Shown piece by piece: positions 47,088-64,000 of a stretch of DNA of 64,000 nt. The notes under the pieces were generated by a model. That model did not search any database. It was not told where the DNA came from and saw only the letters and a program-made list of their open reading frames with translations. Origin of the DNA: Gammaproteobacteria bacterium (GTDB taxonomy: Bacteria; Pseudomonadota; Gammaproteobacteria; UBA4575); the NCBI GenBank assembly GCA_965222615.1, contig CBDCUI010000007.1:23479-87478 (forward strand). Direction: 5' to 3'. Every line of letters begins with the position of its first letter. Within the stretch, counting starts at the first letter, position 1. A program made the position numbers and the translations under genes.

Positions 47088-47351
47088 TTAAAGTGCCATA
47101 ATTACCCAATCACTAGCAGTTAAATCGATATAAATACCGTCTAGGTGTTTTTGACTAACTGCATTCACATGCACAGTAATACTGCAATAGTTTTTTTGCC
47201 TACTTTCTACTTCTCTTATTTTTGTTGTTTCAAAATCATCCAAATGTTTTCTTAGTATCTCGATTACTGCTTGGTGAAATCCATGATGGTTTTTCCCCAT
47301 TACCTTGATTGGAAACTCACATGGAAAAGAAAGCAGGGACTCATCTGACAT
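47088..47351 (-). CDS. ybeD: YbeD/DUF493 family protein
   Basis: 87 aa. FPCEFPIKVMGK is the family N-terminal signature. It occupies the conserved position between dacA and lipB. Confidence 0.85.
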   Translation of the reverse strand: MSDESLLSFPCEFPIKVMGKNHHGFHQAVIEILRKHLDDFETTKIREVESRQKNYCSITVHVNAVSQKHLDGIYIDLTASDWVIMAL

Positions 47352-47390
47352 AGCTAAGAATCGTTGTTAATGGAGCTCTGATTATCAGGT

Positions 47391-48233
47391 CTAGACTTTA
47401 CGTTGTTGATATAGAGTATAAACCTTACGCCATAGTTCCCCTGGAACACCCGCTCCAACGGTTTTTCCATCTATTTGAGTGGCCGCTAACACCTCTTTAG
47501 TAGAGCTAGTAATCCACAATTCATCTGATGAATACAACCATTGTTTTGGAATAGATTGCTCTGTGTATCCTATACCCAATTCGCTGAGCAGCTCTAATAC
47601 AAAATCACGTGTTATGCCAGGCAGAATTAAATTATCTTTTGGATGGGTAAACACTTCGCCATCCCGTATTACAAATAAATTACTGGCCGCTCCTTCTAGC
47701 ACAAATTCATCTCTCACCATAATTGCTTCGACTGCAGATGCCTGTAGAGCATCTTGCTTTGACAAAATATTCGCTAATAAACTAATAACTTTAATATCAC
47801 ACCTTTGCCAACGCATATCTTCCGAAGTAATCAACGCCACACCTCTTTGCAGCTGCTCTTGTGGTATTGGGGCTAGCGGATTAGCCATGGCAAAAATGGT
47901 AGGACCCACATCTTGTGGAAAAACATGGTCGCGAGGTGCAACACCTCTAGTGACTTGAATGTAGATCGCTAGATTTTCCTCGCTGGACTGTTCAATCAAT
48001 GTTTCAACAATAATTTCCCATTCAGCACGAGAATAAGGATTTTCAATGCGAATTTCATTAATGCTGCGCTCCAACCGAGTTAAATGTTGTGCTAAATAAA
48101 AAGGCTTGCTTTTGTAGACTGGTATTAATTCATAAATACCGTCGCCAAAAATAAAACCTCGATCCAAAGGCGAAACCTTGCACTCCTGAAGAGACATATA
48201 TTCACCGTTAAGAAAAGCTTGGGTTTGTGTCAC
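47391..48233 (-). CDS. dat: D-amino-acid transaminase (class IV aminotransferase)
   Basis: GTG start. LNGEYMSLQECKVSPLDRGFIFGDGIYELIPVY and LPGITRD are class IV motifs. At 280 aa, its length and N-terminus fit Dat better than IlvE or PabC, although PabC is not excluded. Confidence 0.7.
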   Translation of the reverse strand: MTQTQAFLNGEYMSLQECKVSPLDRGFIFGDGIYELIPVYKSKPFYLAQHLTRLERSINEIRIENPYSRAEWEIIVETLIEQSSEENLAIYIQVTRGVAPRDHVFPQDVGPTIFAMANPLAPIPQEQLQRGVALITSEDMRWQRCDIKVISLLANILSKQDALQASAVEAIMVRDEFVLEGAASNLFVIRDGEVFTHPKDNLILPGITRDFVLELLSELGIGYTEQSIPKQWLYSSDELWITSSTKEVLAATQIDGKTVGAGVPGELWRKVYTLYQQRKV

Positions 48234-48248
48234 GAAATGCAGCGCATG

Positions 48249-49388
48249 CTAATAAAATAATTTCACAAAGAAATCCACTATACGTCGCCACAATCCTCCT
48301 GATGGATTATCCTGCAAAGTTACGAGGGGCTTCTCAAGATAATCTTTACCACCCAAAGTAACTTTAACTGTACCAACCTGATGACCTTGCTCCACCGGCG
48401 CCATAATATCGGAATTAATATCCATAGATGCTTTTAGCAAATCGTATTGACCACGAGGTATTGTGACATTTAAATCTTCATCTACACCCAGCGGAATTAA
48501 TTTCGACTCACCATTCCACATGCGCTGTTCAACTAAAGTCTCGCCTGCTTTATATAAACTATGCGATTCATAATATCTAAATCCGTAATTAAGCAATGCC
48601 TGAGTATTTACCGTACGAGACTTATCACTATCTGTACCCATCACAGCAGAAATTAGTCGCATATCATTACGTATAGCAGACGCAGCTAGACAATAACCCG
48701 CGGCTTCGGTATGCCCTGTTTTTAAGCCATCAACCGCACTATCTCTCCATAACAATCGATTTCGATTATGTTGTTTGATGTCATTAAATGTAAATTCTTT
48801 TTGAGCATAGCGTTTATATTCTTCCGGAAATTCAGCGATTACGGCTCGCGATAGCAACGCAATGTCATATGCGGTTGTATAATGATCTACATCGGGCAAT
48901 CCGGTTGCATTTATAAAGTGTGTATCTTTAAGCCCTAAACGTTGAGCATGTGCATTCATGACATCAGCAAAGGCTTCTTCAGTACCGGCAACATGTTCTG
49001 CTAGCGCAACACTGGCATCATTACCAGACTGAATAATTAAACCAAGCAATAAATCTTCAAGTAGAATTCTATTGCCGACCTCAACAAACATTCTTGAACC
49101 AATACTACGCCAGGCCTTTTCACTAATGAGCACTTGATCAGTCAGAGAAGCATCATTGGCCGCTAAGGCATGGTAAACCACATAAGCTGTCATAATTTTG
49201 GTAATACTTGCAGGATCAACACGCTCATGAGCATTGTATTCAGCAAGTATTGCGCCACTTGCGTAGTCCATTAATACATAACTTGAGGCATCAAACTTTG
49301 GCGGTGCAGGAATAGGTTGTGACTCTGCGAATAGGCTTGTGTAGCCAAACATCAATGCAAAAATAAGTACAATTGTTTTAATGTTCAT
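48249..49388 (-). CDS. dacA: D-alanyl-D-alanine carboxypeptidase (PBP5/6 class)
   Basis: Signal peptide plus the SxxK motif PASITKIMT, the SGN motif (IIQSGND) and the KTG motif (LKTGHT). Confidence 0.9.
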   Translation of the reverse strand: MNIKTIVLIFALMFGYTSLFAESQPIPAPPKFDASSYVLMDYASGAILAEYNAHERVDPASITKIMTAYVVYHALAANDASLTDQVLISEKAWRSIGSRMFVEVGNRILLEDLLLGLIIQSGNDASVALAEHVAGTEEAFADVMNAHAQRLGLKDTHFINATGLPDVDHYTTAYDIALLSRAVIAEFPEEYKRYAQKEFTFNDIKQHNRNRLLWRDSAVDGLKTGHTEAAGYCLAASAIRNDMRLISAVMGTDSDKSRTVNTQALLNYGFRYYESHSLYKAGETLVEQRMWNGESKLIPLGVDEDLNVTIPRGQYDLLKASMDINSDIMAPVEQGHQVGTVKVTLGGKDYLEKPLVTLQDNPSGGLWRRIVDFFVKLFY

Positions 49389-49424
49389 CTAACACTAACC
49401 TCATCAATAATTTAACTACAGTGA

Positions 49425-50339
49425 CTATTCAATCACTACACGATGTTCCTTCATGCCCATATCGCTGAGTCTGGCTACTGTGTCATCAGCTAACTGAACA
49501 GTAGACAATGGCCCAATGCGTACCCGGTGCAATTCCTTCGCGTCTTTTACAATAGAAGATATGGAAACTATTCCTATATTTAAAGGTTTTAACTGATTGA
49601 GTAATTGATCTGCATTGGCACGATCTCCAAATGCCCCGACCTGTACAAAAACTTGTGGACTCGCCTCAGTAGAAACAATTGTTGACTCTAGTGAATCATC
49701 AGTTTGAGAATTGATCTCTTCAGTAACAGGAATCTTTTCTTTGGCTGTAGAAACTTGCGAATCCTGTTTAGAGTTTTTAGTGACTTGGTAGCTGACTGGA
49801 TCAATGGCTTGAATCTCAACCAAACCTGTGCCTTCGCTTATTATGCCAAGTTTTCTTGCCGCTGAGTAAGATAGATCGATAACACGATTTTGATGAAATG
49901 GCCCGCGATCATTGACGCGCACGACAATTTGTCTGCCATTTTTCAAATTGGTAACTTGAACATAGGTTGGTAACGGTAATCGCGTGTGGGCTGCCGTCAT
50001 CGCATACATATCATAAGTCTCCCCACTAGAAGTTCGACGTCCATGAAACTTTTTACCATACCAAGAAGCAATGCCTCTTTCAGAAAACCCATCGCTACTC
50101 GCCAGAGTGTAATAACGTTTCCCAAACACAACATAAGAACTAGGATTACCATAGCGACTACGTGGCTCAACACGTGGGGTAGCATCAGGAGGTAACTCGC
50201 GAGGAATATGTTTTGTTTCTGGCGGAGCATCCTCTACGGTTGGCTTGAACAAGGAACAAGCACCTTGCCCAATTAATAAAATGGCAAATACCCAAACACT
50301 AAATCTACGGGTAGTTTTGGTTAGATTAATTTTGCGCAA
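49425..50339 (-). CDS. rlpA: Septal ring lytic transglycosylase RlpA (DPBB domain + C-terminal SPOR domain)
   Basis: GIASWYGKKFHGRRTSSGETYDMYAMTAAHTRLPLPTYVQVTNL..GRQIVVRVNDRGPF is the RlpA DPBB core. The C-terminal FVQVGAFGDRANADQL is SPOR-like. Confidence 0.9.
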   Translation of the reverse strand: MRKINLTKTTRRFSVWVFAILLIGQGACSLFKPTVEDAPPETKHIPRELPPDATPRVEPRSRYGNPSSYVVFGKRYYTLASSDGFSERGIASWYGKKFHGRRTSSGETYDMYAMTAAHTRLPLPTYVQVTNLKNGRQIVVRVNDRGPFHQNRVIDLSYSAARKLGIISEGTGLVEIQAIDPVSYQVTKNSKQDSQVSTAKEKIPVTEEINSQTDDSLESTIVSTEASPQVFVQVGAFGDRANADQLLNQLKPLNIGIVSISSIVKDAKELHRVRIGPLSTVQLADDTVARLSDMGMKEHRVVIE

Positions 50340-51327
50340 CGTAGTCTTTGATATCTTGTTTAATCTTTTGACTTAATTGATGAACGGCCATCGCATACAT
50401 ATGACTATGGTTATAACGCGTAATGACATAAAAATTATTAAATCCAGCCCAATATTCGTTTGAATTGTCATTATTTAGTTCAAGTAATGCAACTTTTTCT
50501 TGCGAAAAAGAATCCGCTTCAACATCTATATCATATTTTGCTAAATCTGAAACAACTATTGATGGCTTTATGCCTTTATCTAGTAATTTCATATAAGCTG
50601 AGCCATTAATATTAACAGGCAAAGTAACAGGTTTATTTTCACGCCATCCGTGCCGTTTAAAATAATTTGCCACACTACCTATAACATCCTCATTACTACC
50701 CCATAAATCACGCTTGCCATTATCATCAAAATCCACGGCATATCGTCGATAGCTACTTGAAATAAACTGACTTTTCCCCATCGCTCCAGCATATGAACCT
50801 TTAAGTTCTACCGGATCCAAATTTTCCTCATTTGCCAATAATAAAAATTGTTCAAGCTCACTACGGAAAAACTTTTGTCGTGGCGGATAATCAAAACCCA
50901 AAGTCACTAAAGAATCCAGTACTGGATATTTGCCCTCATATCTTCCATAAAAAGTTTCTACACCAAGAATCGCGACAATAATTTCCGGCGGCACACCAAA
51001 TTCACGCTCTGCCGCAGCCAACGTCTGAGCATTCTCTGACCAAAACTGCAATCCTTCTTTAATACGTTTGGGCGTAATAAAAATTTTTCGATATTCTTGC
51101 CAATTCTTCTTTTTTTCTGCTGGTCGCTGAATAGCCTCTAAAACTTCAGTTTGAGTTTTAACCTTATCAAATAACTTTGTTAATGTTTCTTTAGGATATT
51201 GATGTTGCTCAGAAAACTCATCAATAAAACTCTTCACATCTTTTCGATTGAGATAATTTTCGCTTGCATAAGTATTGCTAACAAACACAAATACTAAAAC
51301 AAGTTTTATTAACCAAACTTTTAACAT
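50326..51327 (-). CDS. mltB: Lytic murein transglycosylase B
   Basis: 333 aa with a signal peptide. GVPPEIIVAILGVETFYG, GSYAGAMGKSQFISSSY and the EF-hand-like DFDDNGKRDLW are MltB/Slt35 signatures. Confidence 0.88.
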   Translation of the reverse strand: MLKVWLIKLVLVFVFVSNTYASENYLNRKDVKSFIDEFSEQHQYPKETLTKLFDKVKTQTEVLEAIQRPAEKKKNWQEYRKIFITPKRIKEGLQFWSENAQTLAAAEREFGVPPEIIVAILGVETFYGRYEGKYPVLDSLVTLGFDYPPRQKFFRSELEQFLLLANEENLDPVELKGSYAGAMGKSQFISSSYRRYAVDFDDNGKRDLWGSNEDVIGSVANYFKRHGWRENKPVTLPVNINGSAYMKLLDKGIKPSIVVSDLAKYDIDVEADSFSQEKVALLELNNDNSNEYWAGFNNFYVITRYNHSHMYAMAVHQLSQKIKQDIKDYVAQN

Positions 51328-51331
51328 AGCT

Positions 51332-52462
51332 CTATGGTGATAATAACGACCGATGCGAATTGATAGACATTAATATTCCAAATGCCGCCATGATGGTTAC
51401 AGCCGAGGTCCCACCATAACTAATCAAAGGCAGTGGTACACCAACAACAGGAAGCAAACCACTAACCATACCGATGTTAACCAAAAAATAAGCAAAAAAA
51501 GATAAACTTAAACTACCTGCCAACAACCTAGAGTAAGTATCTTTTGCACTGACAGCAATACTCAACCCTCGCATTACAACAAAACTATACAAAAATAATA
51601 AAAATACCACCCCTAAAAATCCAAATTCCTCGCTGAATACTGCAAAAATAAAGTCAGTTGTACGTTCTGGAATGAAATCAAGTTGAGATTGTGTGCCATT
51701 TAACCAACCTTTCCCGTAAACACCGCCTGAACCTATAGCAATTTTCGACTGGATTATATGATATCCCGTGCCTAAAGGATCACTTTCTGGATTTAACAAA
51801 GTGAGTATCCGTTGCCGTTGATAATCATGCAGATAGAACCAAAATAATGGCATACACGCCAATGCCAACCCACCAAAAACAGCCAATAAGCGCCAAGTAA
51901 TCCCAGCTAAAAAAATAACAAAAACACCAGATAGAATAATTAAAATTGCTGTGCCCAAATCTGGCTGTAAAACGACGAGCCCAGCGGGTATCGCAATAAT
52001 AAGTATCGCCACGATGATCTGAGTTAACGAGGGTGGCATATGTTTATCACGAAAATACCAAGCAATCATCATTGGCAGAAATATTTTCATTACTTCTGAC
52101 GGTTGAAATCGAAAAATACCAAGATCCAACCAGCGCTGCGCACCTTTACCACTATACCCTATCGCCATCACTACAAATAACAATACCAAACCTAGCAGAA
52201 ATAACCATGGTGACCAATTCGATAATTGCTTACTTGGAATTTGCGCTAAAAAAACTAACGCAACAAATCCCAACGCGAAACGAATAGACTGGCGAGTTAC
52301 AGCCGCCATTTCACCGCTAGTAGCGCTATACAATACAGTTAGTCCAATACCACAAAGCAAAATTAACGCACCCATTAATGCTGGATCAATATTTAATAAA
52401 TGCCTTTCATTTTTAATAGGCGAAGACATTATTATGCCTTTGGAAGAAAATACGGTGCTCAT
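51332..52462 (-). CDS. mrdB: Peptidoglycan glycosyltransferase RodA (SEDS family)
   Basis: About 10 TM. QPSEVMKI, PDLGTA and the C-terminal PLPLISYGGTS are SEDS motifs. It overlaps mrdA by 4 nt; the alternative start is 52429. Confidence 0.92.
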   Translation of the reverse strand: MSTVFSSKGIIMSSPIKNERHLLNIDPALMGALILLCGIGLTVLYSATSGEMAAVTRQSIRFALGFVALVFLAQIPSKQLSNWSPWLFLLGLVLLFVVMAIGYSGKGAQRWLDLGIFRFQPSEVMKIFLPMMIAWYFRDKHMPPSLTQIIVAILIIAIPAGLVVLQPDLGTAILIILSGVFVIFLAGITWRLLAVFGGLALACMPLFWFYLHDYQRQRILTLLNPESDPLGTGYHIIQSKIAIGSGGVYGKGWLNGTQSQLDFIPERTTDFIFAVFSEEFGFLGVVFLLFLYSFVVMRGLSIAVSAKDTYSRLLAGSLSLSFFAYFLVNIGMVSGLLPVVGVPLPLISYGGTSAVTIMAAFGILMSINSHRSLLSP

Positions 52463-54327
52463 GGTTTATTTGCAGCCAATAGTTCTTCTTTACTCAATAA
52501 GTAATTATCCATTACTGCTTTTGCCACAGGTGCAGCAGCACGACTACCACTACCACCATTTTCAACAATTACCGCGATTGCAATTTTGGGATCATTCGCA
52601 GGTGCAAAGGCAATAAATAAACCGTGGTCACGCAATTTTTCTTCAATATTTTCCTCTTCATATTCTTCGTCTTCTGCCAATCCAAATACCTGCGCGGTAC
52701 CAGTTTTACCAGCAATTTTATATTTAGCGTCCTTACCTATTCTAAATGCCGTTCCATTAGGCTTATGCACAGCATCTATCATCGCAGAAATAATCTGGTC
52801 CCAATAATATTCATTGGTTACTTCAATATAGGGCATTGCGGTTGCATGCGCCATTTCTTCTACGTTACCTTGTGTGCGTATAGCGCGTAAAAATCTTGGC
52901 TGCACGCCCTGACCTCGCATCGCTAATGCACTCGCTGCTGTTGCCAGTTGCAAGGGTGTGGTTAACATATATCCTTGACCAATTCCGGTAATAATCGTTT
53001 CACCTGGATACCAGGGCTGTCCATACATACCCTTTTTCCACTCCTGTGACGGCATAATCCCTTTGGCTTCTCCCCATGTATCTAAAGCAGTTTTTTGACC
53101 CAGATTAAATTTAGAAAGAAACTCCGACATTCGATCAATACCGAGATCATTTGCTAGAGTGTAAAAATAAACATCGCATGACTGAGTGATTGCTTTAAAC
53201 ATATCAACTCGGCCATGTCCGCCTTTTTTCCAATCTCGGTATTTACGCTTATGTCCTGGCAATTGATAGTATGGCCCTGCATACATGGTTTTTTCTGCCC
53301 AAGTCACACCATAGTGCAAACCCGCTAGTGCCAACATTGGCTTTATAGTTGAACCTGGTGGATATTGACCAGTCAATGCTCGATTAAATAATGGTCGCTT
53401 TGGATTGTTGCGTAATAAAGAATACTGTTTGCGACTGATGCCATTTACAAAAAGGTTCGGATCAAAAGTTGGAGTACTAACGAAAACTAAAACTTCACCT
53501 GTAACAGGATCCATTGCAACCACAGAGCCATTGCGTTCCCCTAGACTATCTTGAGCAATTTTTTGTAAGCGTGCATCTAAAGTTAATACCAAGTCCGAAC
53601 CTGGCGTAGGAGGTACAGTCTCTAATACACGTAATTTACGACCCTGGGCATTAATTTCAATGTGCTGATATCCTACTTCACCATGCAAAACATCTTCATA
53701 GTGCTTTTCAACTCCTAGTTTACCGATATGCGAAGTTCCACTGTAATTTTGTTTATCTAACTTTTTTACTTCTTGAGCATTGATACGGCCAACATAGCCC
53801 AAAGCATGCGAACTAACACCAGATAAAGGATAGTATCGATTTGCACGTGCGGTAACTTCTACACCAGGATAACGGTGACGATTTACAGAAAAACGTGCTA
53901 CTTCATCTTCAGTTAAGTTTATTTTTAAAGGAATCGATTCAAAAGCTTGTTTACGTTTAATATCGTCATAAAATTTTTTGAGATGATGTTCTTCCAGCTC
54001 CACATACTGACTGATTTCAGAAATAGTCTGTTCAATATCATCAACTTGTACTGGAGTAATTTCGATTTGATAGCTAGGTTTATTATCAGCAAGTAATTTC
54101 AAATTTCGGTCATAAATTAAACCCCGTATAGGTGGTGTTGGGACAACCCTAACTCTATTCTCTTGAGATAAGGTTGTGTAATGCTCATTACTAGTAATCT
54201 GCAAATAAAATAAACGTAGACCAAGCATCACTACGCATAACATCACAAACAGCGCCGCAAAATATACGCGCACTTTAAAATAACGTATTTCTACTTTTGG
54301 ATTTTTTAAAAAGTCGCGCGCTGCCAC
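52459..54327 (-). CDS. mrdA: Penicillin-binding protein 2 (elongasome transpeptidase)
   Basis: GTG start, 622 aa, N-terminal TM. Motifs: SxxK (PPGSTIKP), SxD/SxN region (ITQSCDVYFY), KTG (AGKTGTAQ). Confidence 0.92.
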   Translation of the reverse strand: MAARDFLKNPKVEIRYFKVRVYFAALFVMLCVVMLGLRLFYLQITSNEHYTTLSQENRVRVVPTPPIRGLIYDRNLKLLADNKPSYQIEITPVQVDDIEQTISEISQYVELEEHHLKKFYDDIKRKQAFESIPLKINLTEDEVARFSVNRHRYPGVEVTARANRYYPLSGVSSHALGYVGRINAQEVKKLDKQNYSGTSHIGKLGVEKHYEDVLHGEVGYQHIEINAQGRKLRVLETVPPTPGSDLVLTLDARLQKIAQDSLGERNGSVVAMDPVTGEVLVFVSTPTFDPNLFVNGISRKQYSLLRNNPKRPLFNRALTGQYPPGSTIKPMLALAGLHYGVTWAEKTMYAGPYYQLPGHKRKYRDWKKGGHGRVDMFKAITQSCDVYFYTLANDLGIDRMSEFLSKFNLGQKTALDTWGEAKGIMPSQEWKKGMYGQPWYPGETIITGIGQGYMLTTPLQLATAASALAMRGQGVQPRFLRAIRTQGNVEEMAHATAMPYIEVTNEYYWDQIISAMIDAVHKPNGTAFRIGKDAKYKIAGKTGTAQVFGLAEDEEYEEENIEEKLRDHGLFIAFAPANDPKIAIAVIVENGGSGSRAAAPVAKAVMDNYLLSKEELLAANKP

Positions 54328-54589: not shown

Positions 54590-56593
54590 ATGACAATTCA
54601 TCACTTACCCATCGCTCTTGGTGTGCTGGGTCTTATTGCTGCATTCGTTATTTATCAATTTGTACTACGCTATTCGCAAGGTACTGGTAAAGTTGTCGAA
54701 ATATCTGATGCGATACACACCGGCGCAATGACTTTTATGCGCCGTGAATACACTATTTTATTTATATTTGCAGCTTTCGTTGTCATTGCAATCTGGTTCT
54801 CAGATCTGGGTCAAAATACCGCGATCGCATTTATCGTTGGGGCACTATGTTCATCGGCTGCCGGTTATATCGGTATGTATACCGCTACACGTGCCAATGT
54901 CCGCACCACGGTTGCAGCGCATGAAAAAGGTGCCGATGCAGCACTTGGTGTTGCATTTTTTGGCGGCTCGATTATGGGTCTTACCGTTGCTGCAATGGGC
55001 CTACTCGGCCTTGGCAGCTTGTATCTATTTTTTGGCCGTGATCCAGCTACTGCAAATGTCATTCATGGATTTGGCATGGGGGCTTCCACCGTTGCGCTAT
55101 TCTCACGTGTCGGAGGTGGTATCTATACAAAGAGCGCAGATGTGGGCGCCGATTTGGTGGGTAAAGTCGAAGCCGGTATTCCAGAAGACGATCCTCGTAA
55201 TCCCGGAGTGATTGCAGATAATGTAGGTGACAATGTAGGGGATGTGGCTGGTATGGGCTCAGACATCTTTGAATCATATTGTGGTTCCATCATCGCTACG
55301 ATCGCAATTGCTGCAACCCTTGCCCCGGCTATTGTAGAAAAACTCGGTGAAAAACAAACACTGATGTTTTTACCATTGGGATTAGCATCAGTCGGAATCG
55401 TATGTTCATTACTCGGCATTCTTTTAGTAAAACTTACATCTGGAAAATCTCCAGCAACGGCATTACGCATAGGTACATTTTCTGCAGCAGTATTATTTAT
55501 AATTGCTGCATACTTTGTAATTAAATCACTTGGCTTAAGCACTGGTATATGGGTGTCCGTACTTGCTGGAGCCGTGGGCGGAATCATAATAGGTTTAGTT
55601 ACGGAGTATTACACCGGTGGCAGTCCGGTAAGAAAGATTGCCAAAGGTGGTGAAACCGGTCCCGCTACGGTAATGATCTCCGGCTTGGCCATTGGTATGC
55701 AATCAGTAGTAGTGCCGGTATTAAGTCTTGCTGCGATTATTTTCTTTGCGAATTATTTTGCCAGTTTATATGGCGTTGGTATTGCTGCAGTTGGCATGTT
55801 AGCCACGGTTGGTATCACTATGGCAATCGATGCCTATGGTCCGGTTGCGGATAACGCCGGCGGGATTGCGGAAATGGCTGAACTCGGTGAAGATGTGCGT
55901 AAAATTACTGATGAATTAGATGAAGTCGGTAACACTACAGCCGCAATTGGTAAAGGCTTTGCAATTGGTGCCGCGGCATTGGCTGCATTAGCGATCATCA
56001 CAGCCTTTCTTGCCGAAGTAAGCCATGGCAAAGAATCTATTGTTTTAGACTTAAGTGATCCTAAGGTGTTAATTGGATTATTTATTGGAGGCGTGTTTCC
56101 TTTCATTGTGGCCTCCTTGACCATGACGGCTGTAGGAGATGCCGCATTCGATATGATTAAAGAGATTCGTAGGCAGTTCAAAGAAATACCTGGGCTTTTA
56201 GAAGGCAAGGCCAAGCCGGATACGGTTCGCTGTGTCGATATCGCAACTACTGCAGCTTTAAAGCGTATGGTACCTCCAGGTTTATTGGCCGTGATTGCAC
56301 CAGTAGTAGTCGGCTTTGGATTCGGGGCCGAAACCTTAGGTGGAATGCTAGGTGGCGCACTATTAGGCTGTGTGTTGCTAGCCTTGATGATGGCAAATGC
56401 CGGTGGTGCATGGGATAACGCAAAAAAGTATGTTGAAAAAGGCAATTTAGGTGGCAAAGGCTCCGATGTTCACAAAGCCGCGGTTGTAGGTGACACCGTG
56501 GGAGACCCATTTAAAGACACGTCAGGCCCTTCGATGAACATACTTATCAATGTAATGGCAATCGTGAGTTTGGTAATAGCGCCACTTTTATAA
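54590..56593 (+). CDS. hppA: Membrane-integral pyrophosphate-energised cation pump (M-PPase), K+-dependent-type motif
   Basis: 667 aa, about 16 [90 protein letters not shown] and [16 protein letters not shown] are family signatures. Confidence 0.95.
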
Positions 56594-56701: not shown

Positions 56702-58450
56702 TTAATTTGGTATTACTGGAACCTGTATGTGAGTAGGGGTATCTACTCCAAAACAAATTTTCTGCATTGCACTAATTGGTCTAGTTTCGTAAGGAATGGG
56801 ATTGCCAGTATTTGGATTTCGATCAAATCTCGGAAAGCTGCTGCTTGTGATATGAACCCTTATCTGATGCCCTTTCTTGAAAACATAGCTTGTAGGCCAT
56901 AGTTTTATTTCAATCTTATTCGCTCCTGTACAACTTTGATTTCCTAACTTATACCCTGCTCTTTTAGTACCATCAGTAACATTGTAGGAATCACCATTTT
57001 CAAAAACATCTGTAATTCTCACAACAAAGTCTGTGTTAGTTACATTTGTTTGAACAAAAAGAATTGCTGTTATTGGGCCCGTAAGCTCTATATCTGAATC
57101 AAGAAATTCGCTTGTATAAACTAAAACATCATCTCTTATCTCAATTTCATTTTGTAGAGCGATACCAGCACGCGGACCCAGAACTACTCCACCCTTTGAT
57201 GGTACTGGATCATTCGGATCATACAAATATTGATCAAAACCAATAATTTCAGGCTTATTCCAATTTAGTTTGCCTGAAGAGATTGATGAGTTTGCCGTTC
57301 CATTGCTAGAAATATATAAATTCCTAAATTTAGTCCTTGCTAATGGCCATTCATTTTCGTATCTCCATTTATTAATACCTAAAACAAATAATTTAATTTT
57401 TCCTGCATTACTATTTTGATTGTTTTTAGGCTTTAAAAGTTGTTTATCAAACCAATTTAGTCCTTCCTTAATACTTGTTTTTCTATATGTTGGTACTTTA
57501 CTTGTACCTGGTATTTTTACTTCTCTTGCATGTGACCAAGGACCAATAATTATTTCTGATTGAGTAGAAACAGTTTTAGATTCTGATTGTTTTAATTGCA
57601 TAAAATCATCAAGTTGAGAGGGTAAAAAAGGGTCAAACCAACCAGCAAGCATTTGTACAGGTGCATTAATGGATTTGGCCCTGTCTATACCATCAATATT
57701 TATCCAGTACTTATTGTTAGTATTGTTCAGCACCCAATCGTTAAAAAACTGAATATCTTTACCAGCACGTTCATCTGCGCTTATTAAAGGGAATCCCCAA
57801 AATCCTTTTTCCATATCCTTTATTTTAGGTTCGAAGTCTTCCTTGCCACTGCTTTGCAGTGACCATCTAAGTGCACTTTCAAGGGAAAAAGCCCCGCCAG
57901 GGTAAAACATGTCATAGAAGCTAGTACTAACGATATGTAGATGGTAAGCGCTGATATTCGGATTAGTTTGATCAGAGATTGCTAGTTGTGTGTATCCAAA
58001 GGCAGACCCTCCCCACATGCCAAGTTGTCCACTGAACCATGGTTGTTTGTTCAGCCATTGTAATGTTTCGATTCCATCTCCTCTTTCATTTATTAAAGGA
58101 TAGTATTCACCCTGAGATTTATAGCGTCCACGTGTTCCTTGGATAACAACATTGTACCCACGAGATGCCCAATATCTTGCAACTGCATCTGATTTCAAAC
58201 GATTTGGAAATGTATTTGTAAACGGAATTCTTATTAGAATTGTAGGTACCGGTTTATTGGCGACAGGTCTGTAAACATCGGAGACAAGAGTAATATTATC
58301 TGAAGTAATTAAACTATAATCTTCATGTTTAACTACTTTATATTCTCTGGATCGGACACCCTCATTCGGGAGAAAGAACTCCTGTGTAATAGTTTGACAA
58401 CCACATAAGAGAAGAATTAACAAAAACGAAAGATTTTTGATAAGTTTCAT
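56702..58450 (-). CDS. CocE/NonD family alpha/beta hydrolase (peptidase S15-like), predicted lipoprotein
   Basis: 582 aa. Lipoprotein-type N-terminus MKLIKNLSFLLILLLCGC, RGYNVVIQGTRGRYKSQGEY, the nucleophile elbow MWGGSAFGY, and a C-terminal beta-jelly-roll (PepX_C-like) region with IRVHITSSSFPRFDRNPN. Confidence 0.8.
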   Translation of the reverse strand: MKLIKNLSFLLILLLCGCQTITQEFFLPNEGVRSREYKVVKHEDYSLITSDNITLVSDVYRPVANKPVPTILIRIPFTNTFPNRLKSDAVARYWASRGYNVVIQGTRGRYKSQGEYYPLINERGDGIETLQWLNKQPWFSGQLGMWGGSAFGYTQLAISDQTNPNISAYHLHIVSTSFYDMFYPGGAFSLESALRWSLQSSGKEDFEPKIKDMEKGFWGFPLISADERAGKDIQFFNDWVLNNTNNKYWINIDGIDRAKSINAPVQMLAGWFDPFLPSQLDDFMQLKQSESKTVSTQSEIIIGPWSHAREVKIPGTSKVPTYRKTSIKEGLNWFDKQLLKPKNNQNSNAGKIKLFVLGINKWRYENEWPLARTKFRNLYISSNGTANSSISSGKLNWNKPEIIGFDQYLYDPNDPVPSKGGVVLGPRAGIALQNEIEIRDDVLVYTSEFLDSDIELTGPITAILFVQTNVTNTDFVVRITDVFENGDSYNVTDGTKRAGYKLGNQSCTGANKIEIKLWPTSYVFKKGHQIRVHITSSSFPRFDRNPNTGNPIPYETRPISAMQKICFGVDTPTHIQVPVIPN

Positions 58451-59187
58451 CTTGGTTTTTTTCTCTTAACACCTAGCAATCTTGCAAACCCCCATTTCCT
58501 AAAACCCAACATCATTGCAACCCCATTACGCTTGTTTGCAGGAATTTTTAAGTCATCGCTAATTAATTGGTCAAAATATCTTGCAACTTCGTCTAATTTC
58601 TCATGCATTTTATGAATCGCTCCATCAGTAAGCATTCCACCAACAAAGTGAAGTTTCTCGTCAGGATCAGAAAATTTTGTTTCTAAAAATTCAGTTAAAA
58701 TTTCTTGATTGAAAAACTTTTGTACCGGACCATCATCGGACCATTTAAAGTTTCGAGCTGTTAATAAACGAATACGATTAAATGGTAATAATTCAATTAG
58801 ACCAATTTTTTCAAGCTTTATAAAATGCTTGTTGAGTTCGGCTTCTGAGAAATCAAACGTATCCTTAATTTCATGCTCCTTCCAATGATTAAGAATAAGG
58901 TAGGTAACTAATAACAACCTATGATCATTCACAAATTCTTTTTCTTGTTGCAATGTAAGTTGTGTAACTAAAGGTTGCTGTTGTTCTGATTCCAATACAA
59001 CTTCTTTGATGTCTATCCCAAGCCAATTGCACAAAGTCTCTAGTCGCTTTAATGATAAGTCAGCCTTTGAGAATAAGCGCTTTACACTTGCTTCACTCAA
59101 ATCAAGAATTTCGGCAGCTTCAGCATAGGACTTTCCCTTCTTACGCATGATTTTCTTCAGTGCTATATGTATTGATTTACTCTGCAT
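58447..59187 (-). CDS. XRE-family HTH transcriptional regulator with uncharacterised C-terminal domain
   Basis: N-terminal HTH: LKKIMRKKGKSYAEAAEILDLSEASVKRLFS. Its stop overlaps the hydrolase start by 4 nt (ATGA). It is divergent from the GH3 operon. Confidence 0.75.
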   Translation of the reverse strand: MQSKSIHIALKKIMRKKGKSYAEAAEILDLSEASVKRLFSKADLSLKRLETLCNWLGIDIKEVVLESEQQQPLVTQLTLQQEKEFVNDHRLLLVTYLILNHWKEHEIKDTFDFSEAELNKHFIKLEKIGLIELLPFNRIRLLTARNFKWSDDGPVQKFFNQEILTEFLETKFSDPDEKLHFVGGMLTDGAIHKMHEKLDEVARYFDQLISDDLKIPANKRNGVAMMLGFRKWGFARLLGVKRKKPR

Positions 59188-59209
59188 AAACTTGAAGGTA
59201 TCAATTTAT

Positions 59210-59223
59210 AATACTTAAGTATT
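59210..59223. promoter_or_regulatory. Perfect 14-bp palindrome in divergent promoter region (candidate operator)
   Basis: AATACTTAAGTATT is self-complementary. A second palindrome AATATTA-C-TAATATT lies at 59225-59239, and a further AATACTT half-site at 59261-59267. The surrounding DNA is very AT-rich, so chance occurrence is not negligible. Confidence 0.35.
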
Positions 59224-59423
59224 AAATATTACTAATATTTTTATATTTATTGCATTATATAATACTTTTAGAGATTCTTACACTAATTCGTAGCAATTAT
59301 TGGCTATCAATCAATATCAAGGGGAGGATTATTTTGAGCCAAACACAGCTGTTCATAACTTTATTTTTGATCATTTGTCTTTCTCTACTTTGATTGAAAT
59401 TTCTGAAGAGGAGTATTGGATTT

Positions 59424-59891
59424 ATGAACTCAGTGAAAGAAATAAATACTTACCAGGGAACTTACGGAGCAATTCTTTGGAGCCTACTGGGTCTATTTTG
59501 CTTCCGAGTTGTAGCGCAATTAATTCAATCTAATTTCTCAATAGATTTCTTACCTGCATTTGAAGCTTGGCATAGTGGAGCGCTGCCATATCACTACTTA
59601 GTCATCACTCAGATTTTCATTATCTTTTTATATAGCTACATATGCATTCGTTTTACAAGTAGGAAAGTAGTTCCCAATAGAAAACTGGGAAATATATTTT
59701 TATATTCAGGGTTAATTTATGCAGTAGCTATGTTAGCGCGATTATTAATTGGAGTATTTGGAATTTCTTCAGCATGGTTCCATGCATATTTGCCAATATT
59801 TTTTCATTTCGTACTTGCTGCTTTTTTAATTGTAGTTGGTCTGTTTCATCTGAAATTTTATAAACACTATGAAAAATTACTTCACTCATAG
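59424..59891 (+). CDS. Hypothetical small integral membrane protein (about 4 TM), first gene of the GH3 operon
   Basis: The ATG at 59424 is preceded by GAGGAG (59408-59413, 10-nt spacer); the ORF track starts at TTG 59394. Hydrophobic helices throughout. It overlaps the next gene by 23 nt. Confidence 0.6.
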   Translation: MNSVKEINTYQGTYGAILWSLLGLFCFRVVAQLIQSNFSIDFLPAFEAWHSGALPYHYLVITQIFIIFLYSYICIRFTSRKVVPNRKLGNIFLYSGLIYAVAMLARLLIGVFGISSAWFHAYLPIFFHFVLAAFLIVVGLFHLKFYKHYEKLLHS

Positions 59892-62457
59892 TTTATTACC
59901 ATGGGTTGCATACCCGATTGGTATTGGGATAGGAATCTACTTGCATATAGTAATGCTTTCATGGGGCATTGATCTTCAAATTAGCACATACGTTCCTATA
60001 TTTTTTGCAGCCGGGATGATCACGTTGTTTGAGCTTTATTTTCCACATTTACATCAATGGAAACCCAATATTAAAGATGTAAAAAATGATGCAATGTACA
60101 TGCTTATTGTACAAACGATTTTGCCAAAAGTATTGGCATTTTTTACTGCATTAGTACTGTTACGCTATTCAAACGAAAGTAGTTTATTTAATTTAAACCT
60201 TTGGCCACATTACTTACCTGTATGGATTCAGGCAATGATAATGATTTTAGTGGCTGATTTTTTTCGTTATTGGCTTCATGTTGCTTCTCATAAAAATAGT
60301 TTCTTATGGAGATTTCATGCAGTTCACCATTCCCCTAAAAAATTGTATTGGATAAATACAGGAAGATTTCATCCTATTGAAGAAGTCGCTCAGTTTTTAT
60401 TCGATGCATTACCTTTCATTCTACTAGGTGTCAGTGAATATGTTCTGGCATTTTATTTTGTTTTCTACGCCATAAATGGTTTTTTTCAGCATTCCAATAT
60501 AAAACTGAAGTTTGGTGTATTGAATTATTTAATTAGTACTGCAGAACTACATCGTTGGCATCATTCACGTATTGAGAATGAATCAAATTCAAATTATGGA
60601 AATAATACAATTATTTGGGATCTAATCTTTGGTACTAGATACTTACCAAATAATAGAAGCATCGAAAATATAGGGCTTATCAATTCCAAATATCCGACTA
60701 CATTTATCGATCAACTTAAAACTCCATTTGTTGGAGGATTAGATAAAAAGAATTTGCCTTTACCTAGCATTAAACAGCTAATTGTGAATGGCCTAATCAA
60801 ACTTCAAATGAAAATTACCAAATATACTATTTGGAAACCCATGATGAAGGCTGCTAAAGACCCTATGCATGCGCAATTTAGTTTCCTCAAACAACTCATG
60901 GAAGAAAATGCAAAGACAAAATTTGGAAAAGAACATCAATTTAATAACATAAATTCTTATGAAGATTATTGTAGGCTTGTGCCTATTCAAACATATGAGA
61001 CGTTAAGCCCATATTTTACAAAACAAGATAAATCAAAAGAATCTTTGATAAACAATGAGCAACCGTTTATGTATGCAGTTACAAGCGGGACTACAGGAGC
61101 ATCAAAATTTATACCGATTTTAGATAAGACAATAAAACAAAATAAAAAGCACCAGAAGCTTTTTACCTATATTCAATATAGAGATAATCCTGGAACATTT
61201 AGCGGCAAAATGCTAGGAATAGTTAGCCCAGCAATTGAAGGATATACAGAGCCGGGCACTCCATTCGGCTCTGTATCTGGTGTTCTATATAAAAATATGC
61301 CTTCGATTATGAGATCGAAATATGTACTTCCATTTGAAATATTTTCAATTGAAAACTATGAGCTTAAATATCAACTAATTCTAAGAATCGCCCTTACCTA
61401 TAAAGATATTACCTATTTTGTTACAGCAAATCCGTCAACTTTACTAATGCTTAACAAAATACTAAATGAGGATATTTCTGTATTAGCAAATGAAATTGAG
61501 CATGGAGGATTTAGAGAATACGAAGTCTTACCAAAGAGTATCCAAACATTTATTACAAAAAATTTGAAGCCAAATCCAAAACGTGCAGATGAACTACGTC
61601 AGCTAATATTTAATAAACAAGAAATTACTTTTGCAGATGTATGGCCACAGTTACAAACCGTTGTTACATGGACTGGCGGTAGTTGTGGAATCGTATTAGA
61701 CACAGTTAAGCAAAAATTACCAGCCACGACAAAAATTATTGAACTAGGGTATATGGCTACTGAAGTGAGAGGAACAATAACAATTGATGCAGAAAATAAT
61801 CTTGGTCTTCCTACTATTGAGGATAATTTTTTTGAATTTGTAGAAAGAGATGATTGGGAAAATGATAAACATAATTTTCTAACAATCGATCAGCTATCTA
61901 AAAACAAAGAGTACTATATATTCATCACAACAAATTCTGGCCTTTATAGATATTTCATTAATGACATAGTTAGAGTAACTGGAAAAGTAGAAAATACTCC
62001 TACTCTTCAATTTATACAAAAGGGAAAAGGTGTTACTAGTATTACAGGTGAAAAATTATATGAATCTCAAGTTATTGAAGCGATGAAATTAACTGAGAAA
62101 GAGTTTAATTTTACAAATATCTTCTTCATTATGCTAGCAAATAAAAAATTCTCAAACTATGAATTATTTATTGAGAATTTCGATAATTTTGAACCCCCAT
62201 TAGAACTAATAAGAGACTATGTTGAGTCTTGTCTTTGTAGATTAAATATTGAATATGAAAACAAACTTGCAAGTGGGAGGATTAAACCACTATCTTTACA
62301 TCTTATTCAAAGTGGAACAAGAGAAATATTTAAAAAGTATTTCATCGAAAAAGGACAAAAAGAAAGTCAATTTAAAATTGTGGCTCTTCAATATAAAGAT
62401 GAATTGGACTTTGATTTTGAAAATCACGTTCTAAGATTTTTTGAAAAAGCGAGTTAA
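59869..62457 (+). CDS. Fusion protein: N-terminal membrane fatty-acid hydroxylase/sterol-desaturase-type di-iron domain + C-terminal GH3 (acyl-acid amido synthetase, ANL superfamily) domain
   Basis: One 862-aa ORF. The N-terminal about 260 aa has TM helices and three His boxes: HVASH (aa 137-141), HAVHH (150-154), HRWHH (228-232). The C-terminal about 540 aa has the GH3 nucleotide motif TSGTTGASKFIP (aa 405-416, nt 61081-61116), GYMATE, and GLYRYFINDIVRVTG...TPTLQFIQKGKG. Confidence 0.8.
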   Translation: MKNYFTHSLLPWVAYPIGIGIGIYLHIVMLSWGIDLQISTYVPIFFAAGMITLFELYFPHLHQWKPNIKDVKNDAMYMLIVQTILPKVLAFFTALVLLRYSNESSLFNLNLWPHYLPVWIQAMIMILVADFFRYWLHVASHKNSFLWRFHAVHHSPKKLYWINTGRFHPIEEVAQFLFDALPFILLGVSEYVLAFYFVFYAINGFFQHSNIKLKFGVLNYLISTAELHRWHHSRIENESNSNYGNNTIIWDLIFGTRYLPNNRSIENIGLINSKYPTTFIDQLKTPFVGGLDKKNLPLPSIKQLIVNGLIKLQMKITKYTIWKPMMKAAKDPMHAQFSFLKQLMEENAKTKFGKEHQFNNINSYEDYCRLVPIQTYETLSPYFTKQDKSKESLINNEQPFMYAVTSGTTGASKFIPILDKTIKQNKKHQKLFTYIQYRDNPGTFSGKMLGIVSPAIEGYTEPGTPFGSVSGVLYKNMPSIMRSKYVLPFEIFSIENYELKYQLILRIALTYKDITYFVTANPSTLLMLNKILNEDISVLANEIEHGGFREYEVLPKSIQTFITKNLKPNPKRADELRQLIFNKQEITFADVWPQLQTVVTWTGGSCGIVLDTVKQKLPATTKIIELGYMATEVRGTITIDAENNLGLPTIEDNFFEFVERDDWENDKHNFLTIDQLSKNKEYYIFITTNSGLYRYFINDIVRVTGKVENTPTLQFIQKGKGVTSITGEKLYESQVIEAMKLTEKEFNFTNIFFIMLANKKFSNYELFIENFDNFEPPLELIRDYVESCLCRLNIEYENKLASGRIKPLSLHLIQSGTREIFKKYFIEKGQKESQFKIVALQYKDELDFDFENHVLRFFEKAS

Positions 62458-62465
62458 CTATAATC

Positions 62466-63590
62466 GTGCGGGTTAAAAATACTATATTAAAAAAAATAGA
62501 TATTCCTTTTACAGTGTCCTTCAAACACTCCTCTGCTAAACGATCACAAACTGAGAGTGTTCTTGTAGAGATGACATCTAATAGAGGAATAACAGGTTAT
62601 GGAGAATCATGTCCAAGAGATTACGTAACTTCCGAAAACATTAATAGTGTAAAAGCATTTTTCAATGAAAATATTTTCTCCTTTAAAAATGAAGTGATCA
62701 ACTTATTTAGTCTAAATAATTGGATGGACAAAAATGCTAAAAAAATTGATGCAAATCCAGCTGCTATGTGTGCAATCGAAATGGCATTTCTAGATTTGCT
62801 TTCAAGAAACAATAGTGTGTCAATAGAAAACCTAATCGGGCTACCTGAATTACACGGTCATTTTAAATATACAGCCGTAATTGGAGATAGTAGTGCAGAA
62901 ATATTTCATAGCATTCTTAAAAAATATTTAGAAATGGGCTTTGATGACTACAAGGTTAAACTCTCTGGCGACATTGAAAAGGATCAAGAAAAATGTCAAA
63001 TAATAAATCGTAACGTCAATTCTCCTATACGATTGCGATTTGACGCTAACAACCTATGGGATAACTATAAAATTGCGATTAACTATTTATCTAAATTAAA
63101 TATAGATTATTTTGCAGTTGAAGAACCGCTTGCCCCAAATGACTTTGTAGATTTATCCAAAATCTCAAATGAGCTAAACAAACAAATCATTTTAGATGAA
63201 AGTTTTTTGAGAGTTAGTCAATTTGAAAATCTCATTGATCATCCTGAAATGTGGATAATAAATCTTCGCATATCAAAGATGGGTGGTTTATTAAGGTCAA
63301 AGAAAATTGTCGATGAAGCAAAAGCCCACGGAGTTAAGATAATCATAGGTGCTCAGGTTGGTGAAACTAGCCTTCTCTCTAGAGCTGCTTTAGTTATCGC
63401 TAATTCTGCAAGAGACATACTTATTGCTCAAGAAGGTGCATATGGAAATTTACTACTAAAAACAGACCTTTGTGAGCCACCAATTATGTTTAGCAAATCA
63501 GGTGTTCTCAATTCTTCCAATCTACCAATATCCTCAAATGGATTTGGATTTGAATTAAAAAATCATGATAATTTCGAGATAATTAACTAG
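62466..63590 (+). CDS. Enolase-superfamily enzyme, muconate-lactonizing-enzyme (MLE) subgroup (racemase/epimerase/OSBS-like)
   Basis: GTG start, 374 aa. KxK motif K163-V-K165; metal ligands D193 (RFDAN), E219 (VEEP), D244 (ILDES); second catalytic Lys K271 (ISKMGG). Confidence 0.75.
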   Translation: MRVKNTILKKIDIPFTVSFKHSSAKRSQTESVLVEMTSNRGITGYGESCPRDYVTSENINSVKAFFNENIFSFKNEVINLFSLNNWMDKNAKKIDANPAAMCAIEMAFLDLLSRNNSVSIENLIGLPELHGHFKYTAVIGDSSAEIFHSILKKYLEMGFDDYKVKLSGDIEKDQEKCQIINRNVNSPIRLRFDANNLWDNYKIAINYLSKLNIDYFAVEEPLAPNDFVDLSKISNELNKQIILDESFLRVSQFENLIDHPEMWIINLRISKMGGLLRSKKIVDEAKAHGVKIIIGAQVGETSLLSRAALVIANSARDILIAQEGAYGNLLLKTDLCEPPIMFSKSGVLNSSNLPISSNGFGFELKNHDNFEIIN

Positions 63591-63637
63591 GAAAATTTAT
63601 TGACCATTATTGAGATTTAACCTGTTTGTTATTTCGT

Positions 63638-63659
63638 TCGGTTGAAATAGCAACCGAAA
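63638..63659. terminator. Hairpin between convergent genes (weak terminator candidate)
   Basis: ttcggttg-aaatag-caaccgaa forms an 8-bp stem. There is no T-run on either strand. Confidence 0.25.
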
Positions 63660-63677
63660 GTGGTTCTCCAGATGTTC

Positions 63678-64000
63678 TTATACAGTACTTGCGCGCATTT
63701 CTCTAAATCTTGAAAAAGTATAATTACGCAAATCATCTGCAATCATGTAAAAACATGGCAATACCACTAAAATAAGCACAGTGGCAAAGATTAAACCGAA
63801 TCCAAGGCTCACTGCCATGGGTGATAAAAATGCAGTTTGGCCACTGGCAAAAAAGATTAATGGCGAAATTCCTAAAAATGTCGTTACCGTAGTAAGTAAA
63901 ATTGGGCGAATACGTACTCTTCCCGCATCCACTAATGCATCAAAACAAGTTGCCCCTTGTGCGCGTCGTTTTTTAGCAAAATCTATAAGAATCAAAGAAT
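63678..64000 (-). CDS. RND efflux transporter permease (AcrB/HAE family), C-terminal end only; gene continues past the window
   Basis: The translated C-terminus RIRPILLTTVTTFLGISPLIF...AVSLGFGLIFATVLILVVLPCFY is the typical last TM bundle of RND pumps. The frame stays open to the window edge. Confidence 0.8.
   Translation of the reverse strand, partial: SLILIDFAKKRRAQGATCFDALVDAGRVRIRPILLTTVTTFLGISPLIFFASGQTAFLSPMAVSLGFGLIFATVLILVVLPCFYMIADDLRNYTFSRFREMRASTV

Follow-up and report, generated by a model that had tools for sequence, protein, structure and literature searches.

The plant GH3 proteins (JAR1, GH3.5/3.6, GH3.12 and GH3.15) are soluble, stand-alone enzymes that act on hormones, and their two-step mechanism of adenylation and amidation is established. 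The link between a bacterial GH3 protein and membrane lipids dates from 2025 and from one planctomycete enzyme, namely OlsH (Sinac_1599 of Singulisphaera acidiphila), which forms N-acyl-ornithine from a free fatty acid, ATP/Mg2+ and ornithine, prefers non-hydroxylated fatty acids, with a very weak signal for hydroxypalmitate, and works with OlsI, an O-acyltransferase of the same operon, the pair always sharing an operon in planctomycetes (PMC12493201). The authors of that study report over 7,500 homologues in bacteria, whose amino-acid substrates may differ from ornithine, and do not mention a fusion to a hydroxylase (PMC12493201). OlsE, the C4 head-group hydroxylase of Rhizobium tropici and Agrobacterium, is a di-iron hydroxylase that targets the head group of ornithine lipids (PMC12971839). 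Here we analyze a stretch of 64,000 nucleotides from a gammaproteobacterium of the UBA4575 lineage (GenBank assembly GCA_965222615.1, contig CBDCUI010000007.1, positions 23,479 to 87,478), hereafter the window, in which an OlsE-like hydroxylase domain and a GH3 domain are joined in a single polypeptide. This fusion represents one of the forms taken by a conserved module that consists of a small membrane protein, here termed TM165, the hydroxylase, the GH3 enzyme and an MLE-subgroup enzyme of the enolase superfamily (Table 1).

The fusion is encoded by an open reading frame (ORF) with an ATG start, which runs for 862 codons with no internal stop; its first 23 nt also belong to the TM165 gene, and its end lies 9 nt ahead of the MLE start. 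A preliminary description of this DNA had reported one uninterrupted frame carrying both domains, and this reading of the frame is confirmed, as are all of the His-box and GH3 motifs that it quoted; its assignment of the two domains is upheld both by profile and by fold. In the N-terminal part, the Pfam FA_hydroxylase domain (PF04116) was detected at residues 123-256 (E 2.4e-31; 109.3 bits against a gathering cut-off of 31), and three His boxes of the HxxxH, HxxHH and HxxHH types lie beside transmembrane helices, as judged from hydropathy and an AlphaFold 2 model. An alignment of 12 diverse homologues of the fusion (44-70% identity) showed ten invariant histidines, namely H137, H141, H150, H153, H154, H168, H208, H228, H231 and H232, of which H168 and H208 were absent from the preliminary description. 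A sequence search of the PDB recovered no relative of the hydroxylase half.

The C-terminal part matches all three Pfam domains of the GH3 set (PF03321/PF23571/PF23572) above the cut-off of 23.6 bits: the N domain at residues 326-617 (E 1.5e-58; 198.8 bits), the central domain at 651-718 (E 1.3e-19; 70.5 bits) and the C domain at 734-840 (E 7.7e-13; 49.6 bits). The TSGTTG stretch (residues 405-410) and K413 of the P-loop, together with the LGYxxxE and YRYxxxD motifs, are invariant in the same 12 homologues. In phmmer searches the GH3 half matched plant GH3.6, JAR1 and GH3.12 (E ~1e-21), and Foldseek comparisons with plant GH3 structures gave E-values of 1e-25 to 1e-28, pointing to the two-domain GH3/ANL fold, with a superposition on AtGH3.15 (6avh) at a TM-score of 0.84 and a root-mean-square deviation of 3.0 Å. 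The model of the whole fusion has a mean predicted local distance difference test (pLDDT) score of 79.7, with most of the GH3 part at 85-95, and its Foldseek matches are exclusively to GH3/ANL proteins. The module GH3 thus shares the motifs and the fold of the plant enzymes (TM-scores of 0.81-0.84 to GH3.15), but differs from them in its sequence (~20% identity), in its tethering to the membrane and in an extra conserved N-terminal helix. This helix occupies the place of the linker of about 60 residues that had been proposed earlier between the two domains: in loci where the hydroxylase and the GH3 protein are encoded separately, the end of the former and the start of the latter project to residues ~290-300 of the window protein, and residues 301-330 form a conserved helix (pLDDT 79-93) that belongs to the GH3 protein, so that no 60-residue linker exists.

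A protein-database search with the fusion returned 712 matches, of which the best 120 (cluster representatives at 44-88% identity) are all ~840-1010 residues long and carry all four Pfam domains of the window protein in one full-length fusion. The architecture is hence widespread in several phyla, the source names among the fused homologues including Cytophagaceae, Chryseolinea, Gracilimonas, Gammaproteobacteria, Gemmatimonadetes, Latescibacteria and Myxococcota. The single ORF is also retained in three independent assemblies of gammaproteobacterial metagenome-assembled genomes (MAGs) from relatives at 87-89% identity, one of them a closed 2.41-Mb chromosome. Across the junction (nt 60600-60850), for which a check for a frameshift had been proposed, both alternative frames are crowded with stops, and the junction is conserved at the protein level in the alignment of 12 homologues. 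Among the fused proteins, one of 712 residues (P0017; 65% identity, on a 3.77-Mb contig) has an internal deletion in which the hydroxylase is cut after residue ~190 and joined to GH3, so that H208 and the third His box are missing; it has the appearance of a degenerate hydroxylase followed by an intact GH3. Two others (P0066 and P0081), on contigs of ~5 kb, carry the name of a Nostocales cyanobacterium, 'Kaarinaea lacus'; their sequences resemble versions from proteobacteria or Bacteroidota, and their probable source is heterotrophs assembled together with a non-axenic culture.

We fetched 92 loci and classified the ORFs of the first 88 against the window proteins, which revealed a GH3 gene in 49 loci. 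The hydroxylase and GH3 form one ORF in 18 of these 49 and separate adjacent ORFs, frequently overlapping by a few bases, in 29. With separate genes being the commoner state (29 versus 18), the joining of the two proteins is not in itself essential. The MLE gene lies immediately 3' of GH3 in 36 of the 38 loci with room for it, and the TM165 gene immediately 5' of the hydroxylase in 25 of 37; once, in locus L008, TM165 is placed downstream of MLE. The association was also recovered reciprocally, as four of four members of the MLE subfamily (~50% identity), picked solely for sitting on long contigs, lie directly behind an array of a Pfam-less protein of ~150 residues, an FA_hydroxylase protein of 284-294 residues and a GH3 protein of 548 residues. 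The module is found in Gammaproteobacteria, Bacteroidota, Balneolota, Gemmatimonadota, Latescibacterota, Myxococcota and Acidobacteriota-type MAGs. The preliminary description was right as to the fusion but did not recognize the four-part module that it forms with the TM165 and MLE genes on either side.

Some loci, namely L005 (5844-7995), L004, L017, L018 and L021, carry other genes on the 5' side of the module. A cytochrome P450 gene is present there in five loci, and a protein of 256-261 residues with a weak match to 2-oxoacid_dh, the CAT-fold acyltransferase domain, precedes the module in four. These loci mostly have no TM165 upstream, which suggests that the P450 and the CAT-fold protein are an alternative tailoring set for a second hydroxylation and an O-acylation.

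Table 1. Features of the module and its surroundings in the window (positions in nt; residues numbered within each protein)
Feature	Position	Strand	Size or residues	Basis or remarks
TM165, small 4-helix membrane protein	59394-59891	+		Longest ORF, from TTG 59394
Hydroxylase-GH3 fusion protein	59869-62457	+	862 aa	ORF; Pfam FA_hydroxylase and GH3 N/M/C
OlsE-like membrane di-iron hydroxylase domain	59869-60753	+	aa 1-~295	PF04116, OlsE model, His residues, helices
His box HVASH	60277-60291	+	aa 137-141	
His box HAVHH	60316-60330	+	aa 150-154	
H168	60370-60372	+	aa 168	
H208	60490-60492	+	aa 208	
His box HRWHH	60550-60564	+	aa 228-232	
GH3 acyl-acid amido synthetase part	60754-62457	+	aa ~296-862	Pfam, phmmer, Foldseek, motifs, split point
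TSGTTGASKFIP	61081-61116	+	aa 405-416	P-loop TSGTTGxxKxxP
LGYxxxE	61744-61764	+	aa 626-632	
YRYxxxD	61945-61965	+	aa 693-699	
YRYFINDIVRVTG	61945-61983	+	aa 693-705	
GEK		+	aa 727-729	In GH3 part
Enolase-superfamily MLE-subgroup enzyme	62466-63590	+	374 aa	Pfam MR_MLE_N, MR_MLE_C
KxK of MLE enzyme	62952-62960	+	K163-x-K165	
CocE/NonD-family (Peptidase_S15) alpha/beta-hydrolase	56702-58450	-		TIGR00976; Pfam S15 and PepX_C
XRE/Cro-type helix-turn-helix protein	58447-59187	-	246 aa	Pfam HTH_26, HTH_3
AcrB/RND pump, C-terminal end	63678-64000	-		Convergent, just 3' of module
Multi-pass membrane ORF	54590-56593	+	667 aa	Adjoins upstream side of CocE/NonD hydrolase gene
Cell-wall/lipoate cluster mrdA-rodA-mltB-rlpA-dacA-lipA	45485-54327	-		Upstream of module

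The enzyme encoded at the 3' end of the module displays the catalytic set that defines the MLE subgroup, namely the KxK of strand 2 (K163 and K165), the D/E/D metal ligands (D193, E219 and D244) and the second lysine in strand 6 (K271). These residues are at least 90% conserved in 34 module orthologues and align with those of 1jpm and 3r0k; a family motif, A321-Q-E-G-A-x-G327 (AQEGAxG), is conserved in the module family. Its nearest sequences in the PDB are dipeptide epimerases (3r0k, 1jpm/1tkk and 3jva), 2p88 and N-acylamino acid racemases (1sja etc.). The racemases and epimerases of the subgroup with which it shares the two-lysine and metal-ligand set (1tkk, 3jva, 3r0k, 2p88 and 1sja) all act by removing the C-alpha proton of an N-acylated amino acid. 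In the N-succinylamino acid racemases the mechanism is Mg-dependent and uses two lysines, with the amide carbonyl adding to the acidity of the C-alpha (PMC8142540). The window enzyme scores below the cut-offs of the characterized families, its best NCBIfam score being 120 bits against 200.65 for the menC-type TIGR01928, with 80.8 bits against 400 for DgcA and all scores for the o-succinylbenzoate synthase and N-succinyl-amino-acid racemase equivalogs under their cut-offs. In dipeptide epimerases a DxD after strand 8 binds the free ammonium of the dipeptide. The corresponding stretch of the Bacillus subtilis epimerase, 'FDFDAP', aligns with 'AQEGAYG' in the window enzyme, and the lack of the DxD would be in line with a substrate that is an N-acyl compound and not a dipeptide. 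The partners of the module enzyme are lipid enzymes, as opposed to the peptidoglycan-recycling or succinyl-transferase genes that accompany the dipeptide epimerases and N-succinyl racemases. On the strength of its residues and nearest relatives it is probably an N-acyl-amino-acid racemase/epimerase or dehydratase.

TM165, which gene callers start at Met 59424 to give a protein of 155 residues, has no match in Pfam or NCBIfam and no fold match in the PDB, despite a model with a pLDDT of 94.4. Its 59 homologues are each unnamed or 'hypothetical', and a profile search expanded the family to 1,192 representatives at 50% identity. Nine residues are invariant (Q32, L43, P44, W49, Y56, Q63, Y99, R106 and H128 in the 155-residue numbering) and H142 is at least 90% conserved. 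TM165 is joined to the whole hydroxylase-GH3 protein in P0074 (1009 residues; BLASTP 45% identity and E 2e-25 to the TM165 of the window), to the hydroxylase alone in L012, L035, L044, L054, P0196, P0238, P0309, P0321 and P0324, and to a Peptidase_S15/CocE-NonD hydrolase in P0205, P0266 and P0272, where an extra hydrophobic helix separates the two parts. A further protein of 484 residues (P0204) consists of MurB (FAD_binding_4 and MurB_C) with a C-terminal TM165 domain; it could be a genuine fusion or result from read-through in gene calling, and is at least consistent with a cytoplasmic N-terminus of TM165.

The fusions of TM165 with S15 domains tie the module to the divergent hydrolase gene of the window, whose product matches TIGR00976 over its full length (333.3 bits against a cut-off of 66.3). 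An S15 hydrolase adjoins the module in the window and in L002, L003, L006, L019, L023 and L090. The window hydrolase bears a lipoprotein signal, MKLIKNLSFLLILLLCGC, and is hence extracytoplasmic, and S15 lipoboxes are present in three lineages. An acyltransferase role of the OlsI type is unlikely for it, given its membership in the CocE/NonD family and its extracytoplasmic location. Provided that the His boxes and the ATP-dependent GH3 lie in the cytoplasm, hydropathy and the helix pattern place the N-terminus of the hydroxylase in the cytoplasm too. The attachment of TM165 directly to this N-terminus, taken together with the extra helix before S15, then argues for a periplasmic hydrolase and cytoplasm-facing synthetic enzymes.

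A comparable architecture is known from Scs7p/FA2H, in which cytochrome b5 is fused N-terminally to the FA_hydroxylase domain, and TM165 takes the place of this accessory part in several lineages. TM165 differs in being an integral protein with four transmembrane helices and no similarity to cytochrome b5. We considered the possibility that it is a di-haem cytochrome b serving as electron donor and rejected this as the leading idea, as TM165 has one invariant and one near-invariant histidine, both on the same helix, lacks a Pfam or fold match, and occurs also in fusion with a hydrolase, for which electrons are not required. A haem at a TM165 dimer interface is possible.

Taken together, these observations make it on balance somewhat probable that the module makes a hydroxylated, possibly D-form, amino-acid lipid at the membrane. 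This reading is favoured since the domains are real and their motifs invariant, since OlsE and OlsH are the sole NCBIfam matches of the fusion, since the module is conserved and tied together by Rosetta-stone fusions, since the MLE enzyme keeps its K-K/D-E-D/K set and its solved relatives deprotonate N-acylated amino acids, and since the P450 and CAT-fold acyltransferase-like proteins of other loci are typical lipid-tailoring enzymes. The lipophilic acyl substrate handled at the membrane that had been proposed from the fusion alone is kept as the most reasonable reading. We infer each step of the scheme from the domain identities and gene associations demonstrated above, N-acyl ligation itself having been demonstrated only for OlsH. 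The cytoplasmic GH3, anchored at the inner membrane face by the hydroxylase, would adenylate a free fatty acid with ATP/Mg2+ and pass it to the alpha-amine of an amino acid to give an N-acyl amino acid, a predicted chemistry like that of OlsH. The di-iron hydroxylase would then oxidize this membrane-bound product in its head group or acyl chain. The co-transcribed MLE enzyme might hold the free carboxylate via Mg2+ and take the alpha-proton with its two lysines, either epimerizing the head group to the D-form or, should the hydroxyl be beta, eliminating it to yield a dehydro product. TM165 may act as a membrane partner (scaffold, flippase or redox partner) and as the physical link to the periplasmic CocE/NonD lipoprotein, which could process, recycle or turn over the module lipid.

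The comparison with the Ols enzymes supports the general chemistry while limiting how much can be transferred from them. The module hydroxylase resembles OlsE in its multi-transmembrane di-iron His-box fold and likely in its class of substrate, an N-acyl amino-acid lipid, but differs in being physically coupled to the lipid-forming ligase. The module GH3 likewise shares with OlsH the bacterial GH3 adenylating scaffold and the same three nucleotide-binding motifs, but it is fused or adjacent to a di-iron hydroxylase and its other partners are MLE and TM165, as opposed to the OlsI acyltransferase and OlsG methyltransferase of OlsH. Several points weigh against the proposed aminolipid. The fusion reaches 177.6 bits against the OlsE model (NF052566; E 3.4e-52; model positions 29-284 of 293), far below the equivalog cut-off of 475, and 116.1 bits against the OlsH model (NF052613; E 1.5e-33), far below that of 620, the latter alignment being limited to the N-terminal 40% of the model (best stretch at positions 33-240 of 524). 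A hydroxylase of a split module behaves in the same way against the OlsE model, and the split GH3 of locus L033 scores 100.9 bits against OlsH. With such scores the substrates of OlsE and OlsH are not transferable to the module. Also on this side of the balance, the core module has no O-acyltransferase of the OlsI, OlsA or OlsF type, no electron donor for the hydroxylase is encoded near the module, and the hydroxylase part of the structural model is moderately confident, with pLDDT values of 41-90. The acyl substrate might also be something other than a fatty acid, as plant GH3s use small aromatic or jasmonoyl acids, and epimerization, dehydration and cycloisomerization by the MLE enzyme cannot be told apart from its sequence.

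Two sets of loci deserve mention in connection with the hydroxylase. In a Vicinamibacterales-type locus (L089:7110-9720) the module is followed by a GNAT acetyltransferase, OsmC and an FAD/NAD/2Fe-2S reductase (PF00970, PF00175 and PF00111), the last being a possible electron donor for the di-iron hydroxylase in this single locus. Stand-alone relatives of the hydroxylase with no adjacent GH3 are found in L055-L088 (e.g. L072:5845-6759, L076:5575-6423 and L082:5869-6714); three of these score ~360 bits with the OlsE model and probably represent true hydroxylases of the ornithine-lipid type, and others, at ~205-240 bits, constitute further uncharacterized groups.

Of the alternatives, the one that survives best, although we regard it as unlikely, is that the acyl group is a transient handle: an L-amino acid would be N-acylated by GH3, hydroxylated, epimerized, moved across the membrane with TM165 and deacylated in the periplasm by the CocE/NonD lipoprotein, so that a D- and/or hydroxy-amino acid is set free on the outer side of the membrane. 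The N-succinyl-amino-acid racemase pathway is a precedent for this logic of acylating, racemizing and deacylating. In its favour are the S15 hydrolase beside the module in seven loci of different lineages, the lipoprotein signals of the S15 proteins, and the two kinds of TM165 fusion, one with S15 via an extra helix that puts it on the opposite membrane side from the TM165 termini and the other, in other lineages, directly with the cytoplasm-facing hydroxylase. In enolase-type racemases, moreover, the C-alpha proton has to be made more acidic by the amide carbonyl (PMC8142540). However, S15 lies near the module in a minority of loci (6 of 49), the scheme would cost one ATP (to AMP and PPi) per amino acid, and transport by TM165 is unsupported, this protein having no relative by fold or sequence. 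Amidase activity on N-acyl amino acids is also not known from CocE/NonD enzymes.

Decidedly unlikely in our estimate is the order of reactions given in the preliminary description, in which a free fatty acid or other lipid is first hydroxylated or desaturated and then conjugated by GH3. Some members of the FA_hydroxylase family do act on free fatty acids, and the N-terminal position of the hydroxylase, with the two active sites tethered, could be taken to favour this order. Nevertheless, the split forms are the commoner ones, so the order of the domains is uninformative on the order of the reactions. Acyloxyacyl aminolipids need a hydroxy-acyl chain (PMC12493201), which speaks for early hydroxylation; against it, OlsE, its closest relative with a curated model, takes the completed aminolipid as its substrate, and OlsH, with its preference for non-hydroxylated acids, gave hardly any signal with hydroxypalmitate (PMC12493201). 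Hydroxylation before ligation is thus not favoured over the reverse.

Very doubtful, and rejected here, is the reading of the two halves as true orthologues of OlsH and OlsE that would make lyso-ornithine lipid and 4-hydroxy-ornithine lipid, with the neighbouring genes being irrelevant. It draws on the exclusive NCBIfam matches and on the almost end-to-end coverage of the OlsE model, but is contradicted by the shortfall from both cut-offs, by the closer OlsE-like hydroxylases (~360 bits) that form a separate, GH3-less group, by the absence from the operon of an OlsI-like gene, which invariably accompanies OlsH in planctomycetes, and by the near-universal MLE partner, which has no role in ornithine-lipid synthesis. 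The authors of the OlsH study themselves expect other amino acids for the GH3 proteins of non-planctomycetes (PMC12493201). Finally, the chance that two neighbouring genes were merged by an assembly or frameshift error is practically nil, for although many metagenomic loci do have separate adjacent hydroxylase and GH3 genes, this artefact is rejected by the independent assemblies of close relatives, the more than 120 fused representatives across several phyla, the closed alternative frames and the conserved junction.

As for the surroundings of the module, the XRE-type gene lies divergently upstream of it in seven loci (the window, L001-L003, L012, L016 and L034), and its product is probably a dedicated regulator of the module. 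In two related contigs (L091:1522-3469 and L092:1541-3476) the module comes right after lnt, for apolipoprotein N-acyltransferase, with the last few bases of lnt shared by the TM165 gene; the arrangement could be fortuitous or could point to a connection with acylation of envelope lipids. Next to the RND pump gene at the end of the window may be set locus L006 (14205-18586), where a complete OEP-MFP-RND set follows the module and S15; such a pump could be an exporter for the product, or its position a coincidence. The multi-pass membrane ORF upstream of the hydrolase gene looks, from its sequence, like a membrane-bound proton-translocating pyrophosphatase. The cell-wall/lipoate cluster encodes a PBP2 transpeptidase, RodA, an SLT_2 lytic transglycosylase, an RlpA-like DPBB and SPOR protein and a DacA-type carboxypeptidase, and also holds a class IV aminotransferase and lipoyl synthase; the presence of these housekeeping genes beside the module shows that it resides in the core chromosome of this uncultured gammaproteobacterium. 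The G+C content is 0.32-0.34 across the module (58001-64000) and 0.35-0.45 elsewhere in the window, with the peak of 0.45 at 26-30 kb; the lower value may reflect either AT-rich genes for membrane proteins or acquisition by horizontal transfer. Scans of 58400-64000 found fewer promoter-like sites than in shuffled sequence and no convincing terminator, and Rfam and tRNA scans of the window gave no matches.

In keeping with the earlier remark that the architecture is uncharacterized, the searchable literature gave no description of the hydroxylase-GH3 fusion or of the module, of a bacterial GH3 paired with a racemase-like enolase-superfamily enzyme, or of the TM165 family and its fusions, and a 2026 review does not mention the hydroxylase-GH3 fusion. 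The component families are already known, and the statement that characterized GH3s are soluble stand-alone plant enzymes has been outdated by the bacterial OlsH (2025, PMC12493201); with that demonstration a lipid function in a bacterial GH3 no longer comes as a surprise, and the lipid reading of the fusion is correspondingly less surprising. A fuller version of the proposal, which we consider rather unlikely as a whole, would be an acyl-handle chemistry spread over at least six phyla, in which GH3 ligation and di-iron hydroxylation are followed by inversion by a lipid-specific racemase, and TM165, as a new family of small membrane proteins, either hands the lipid across the membrane to a periplasmic CocE/NonD deacylase or provides the hydroxylase with electrons, the product being a new class of D- or hydroxy-aminolipids or a released D- or hydroxy-amino acid. 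Were TM165 indeed the electron supplier, it would answer the question of what reduces bacterial di-iron hydroxylases of this kind.

The module represents a well-defined and widespread subset of the thousands of uncharacterized GH3 homologues, and its gene partners predict a testable product, namely an N-acyl amino acid that is hydroxylated and epimerized or dehydrated. If this is true, the module would provide acyl carrier protein- and coenzyme A-independent enzymes for chiral N-acyl amino-acid surfactants, a role for an unannotated family of small membrane proteins and the first physiological lipid substrate for an MLE-type racemase of the enolase superfamily, and would define a new class of aminolipids together with the pathway that makes them.

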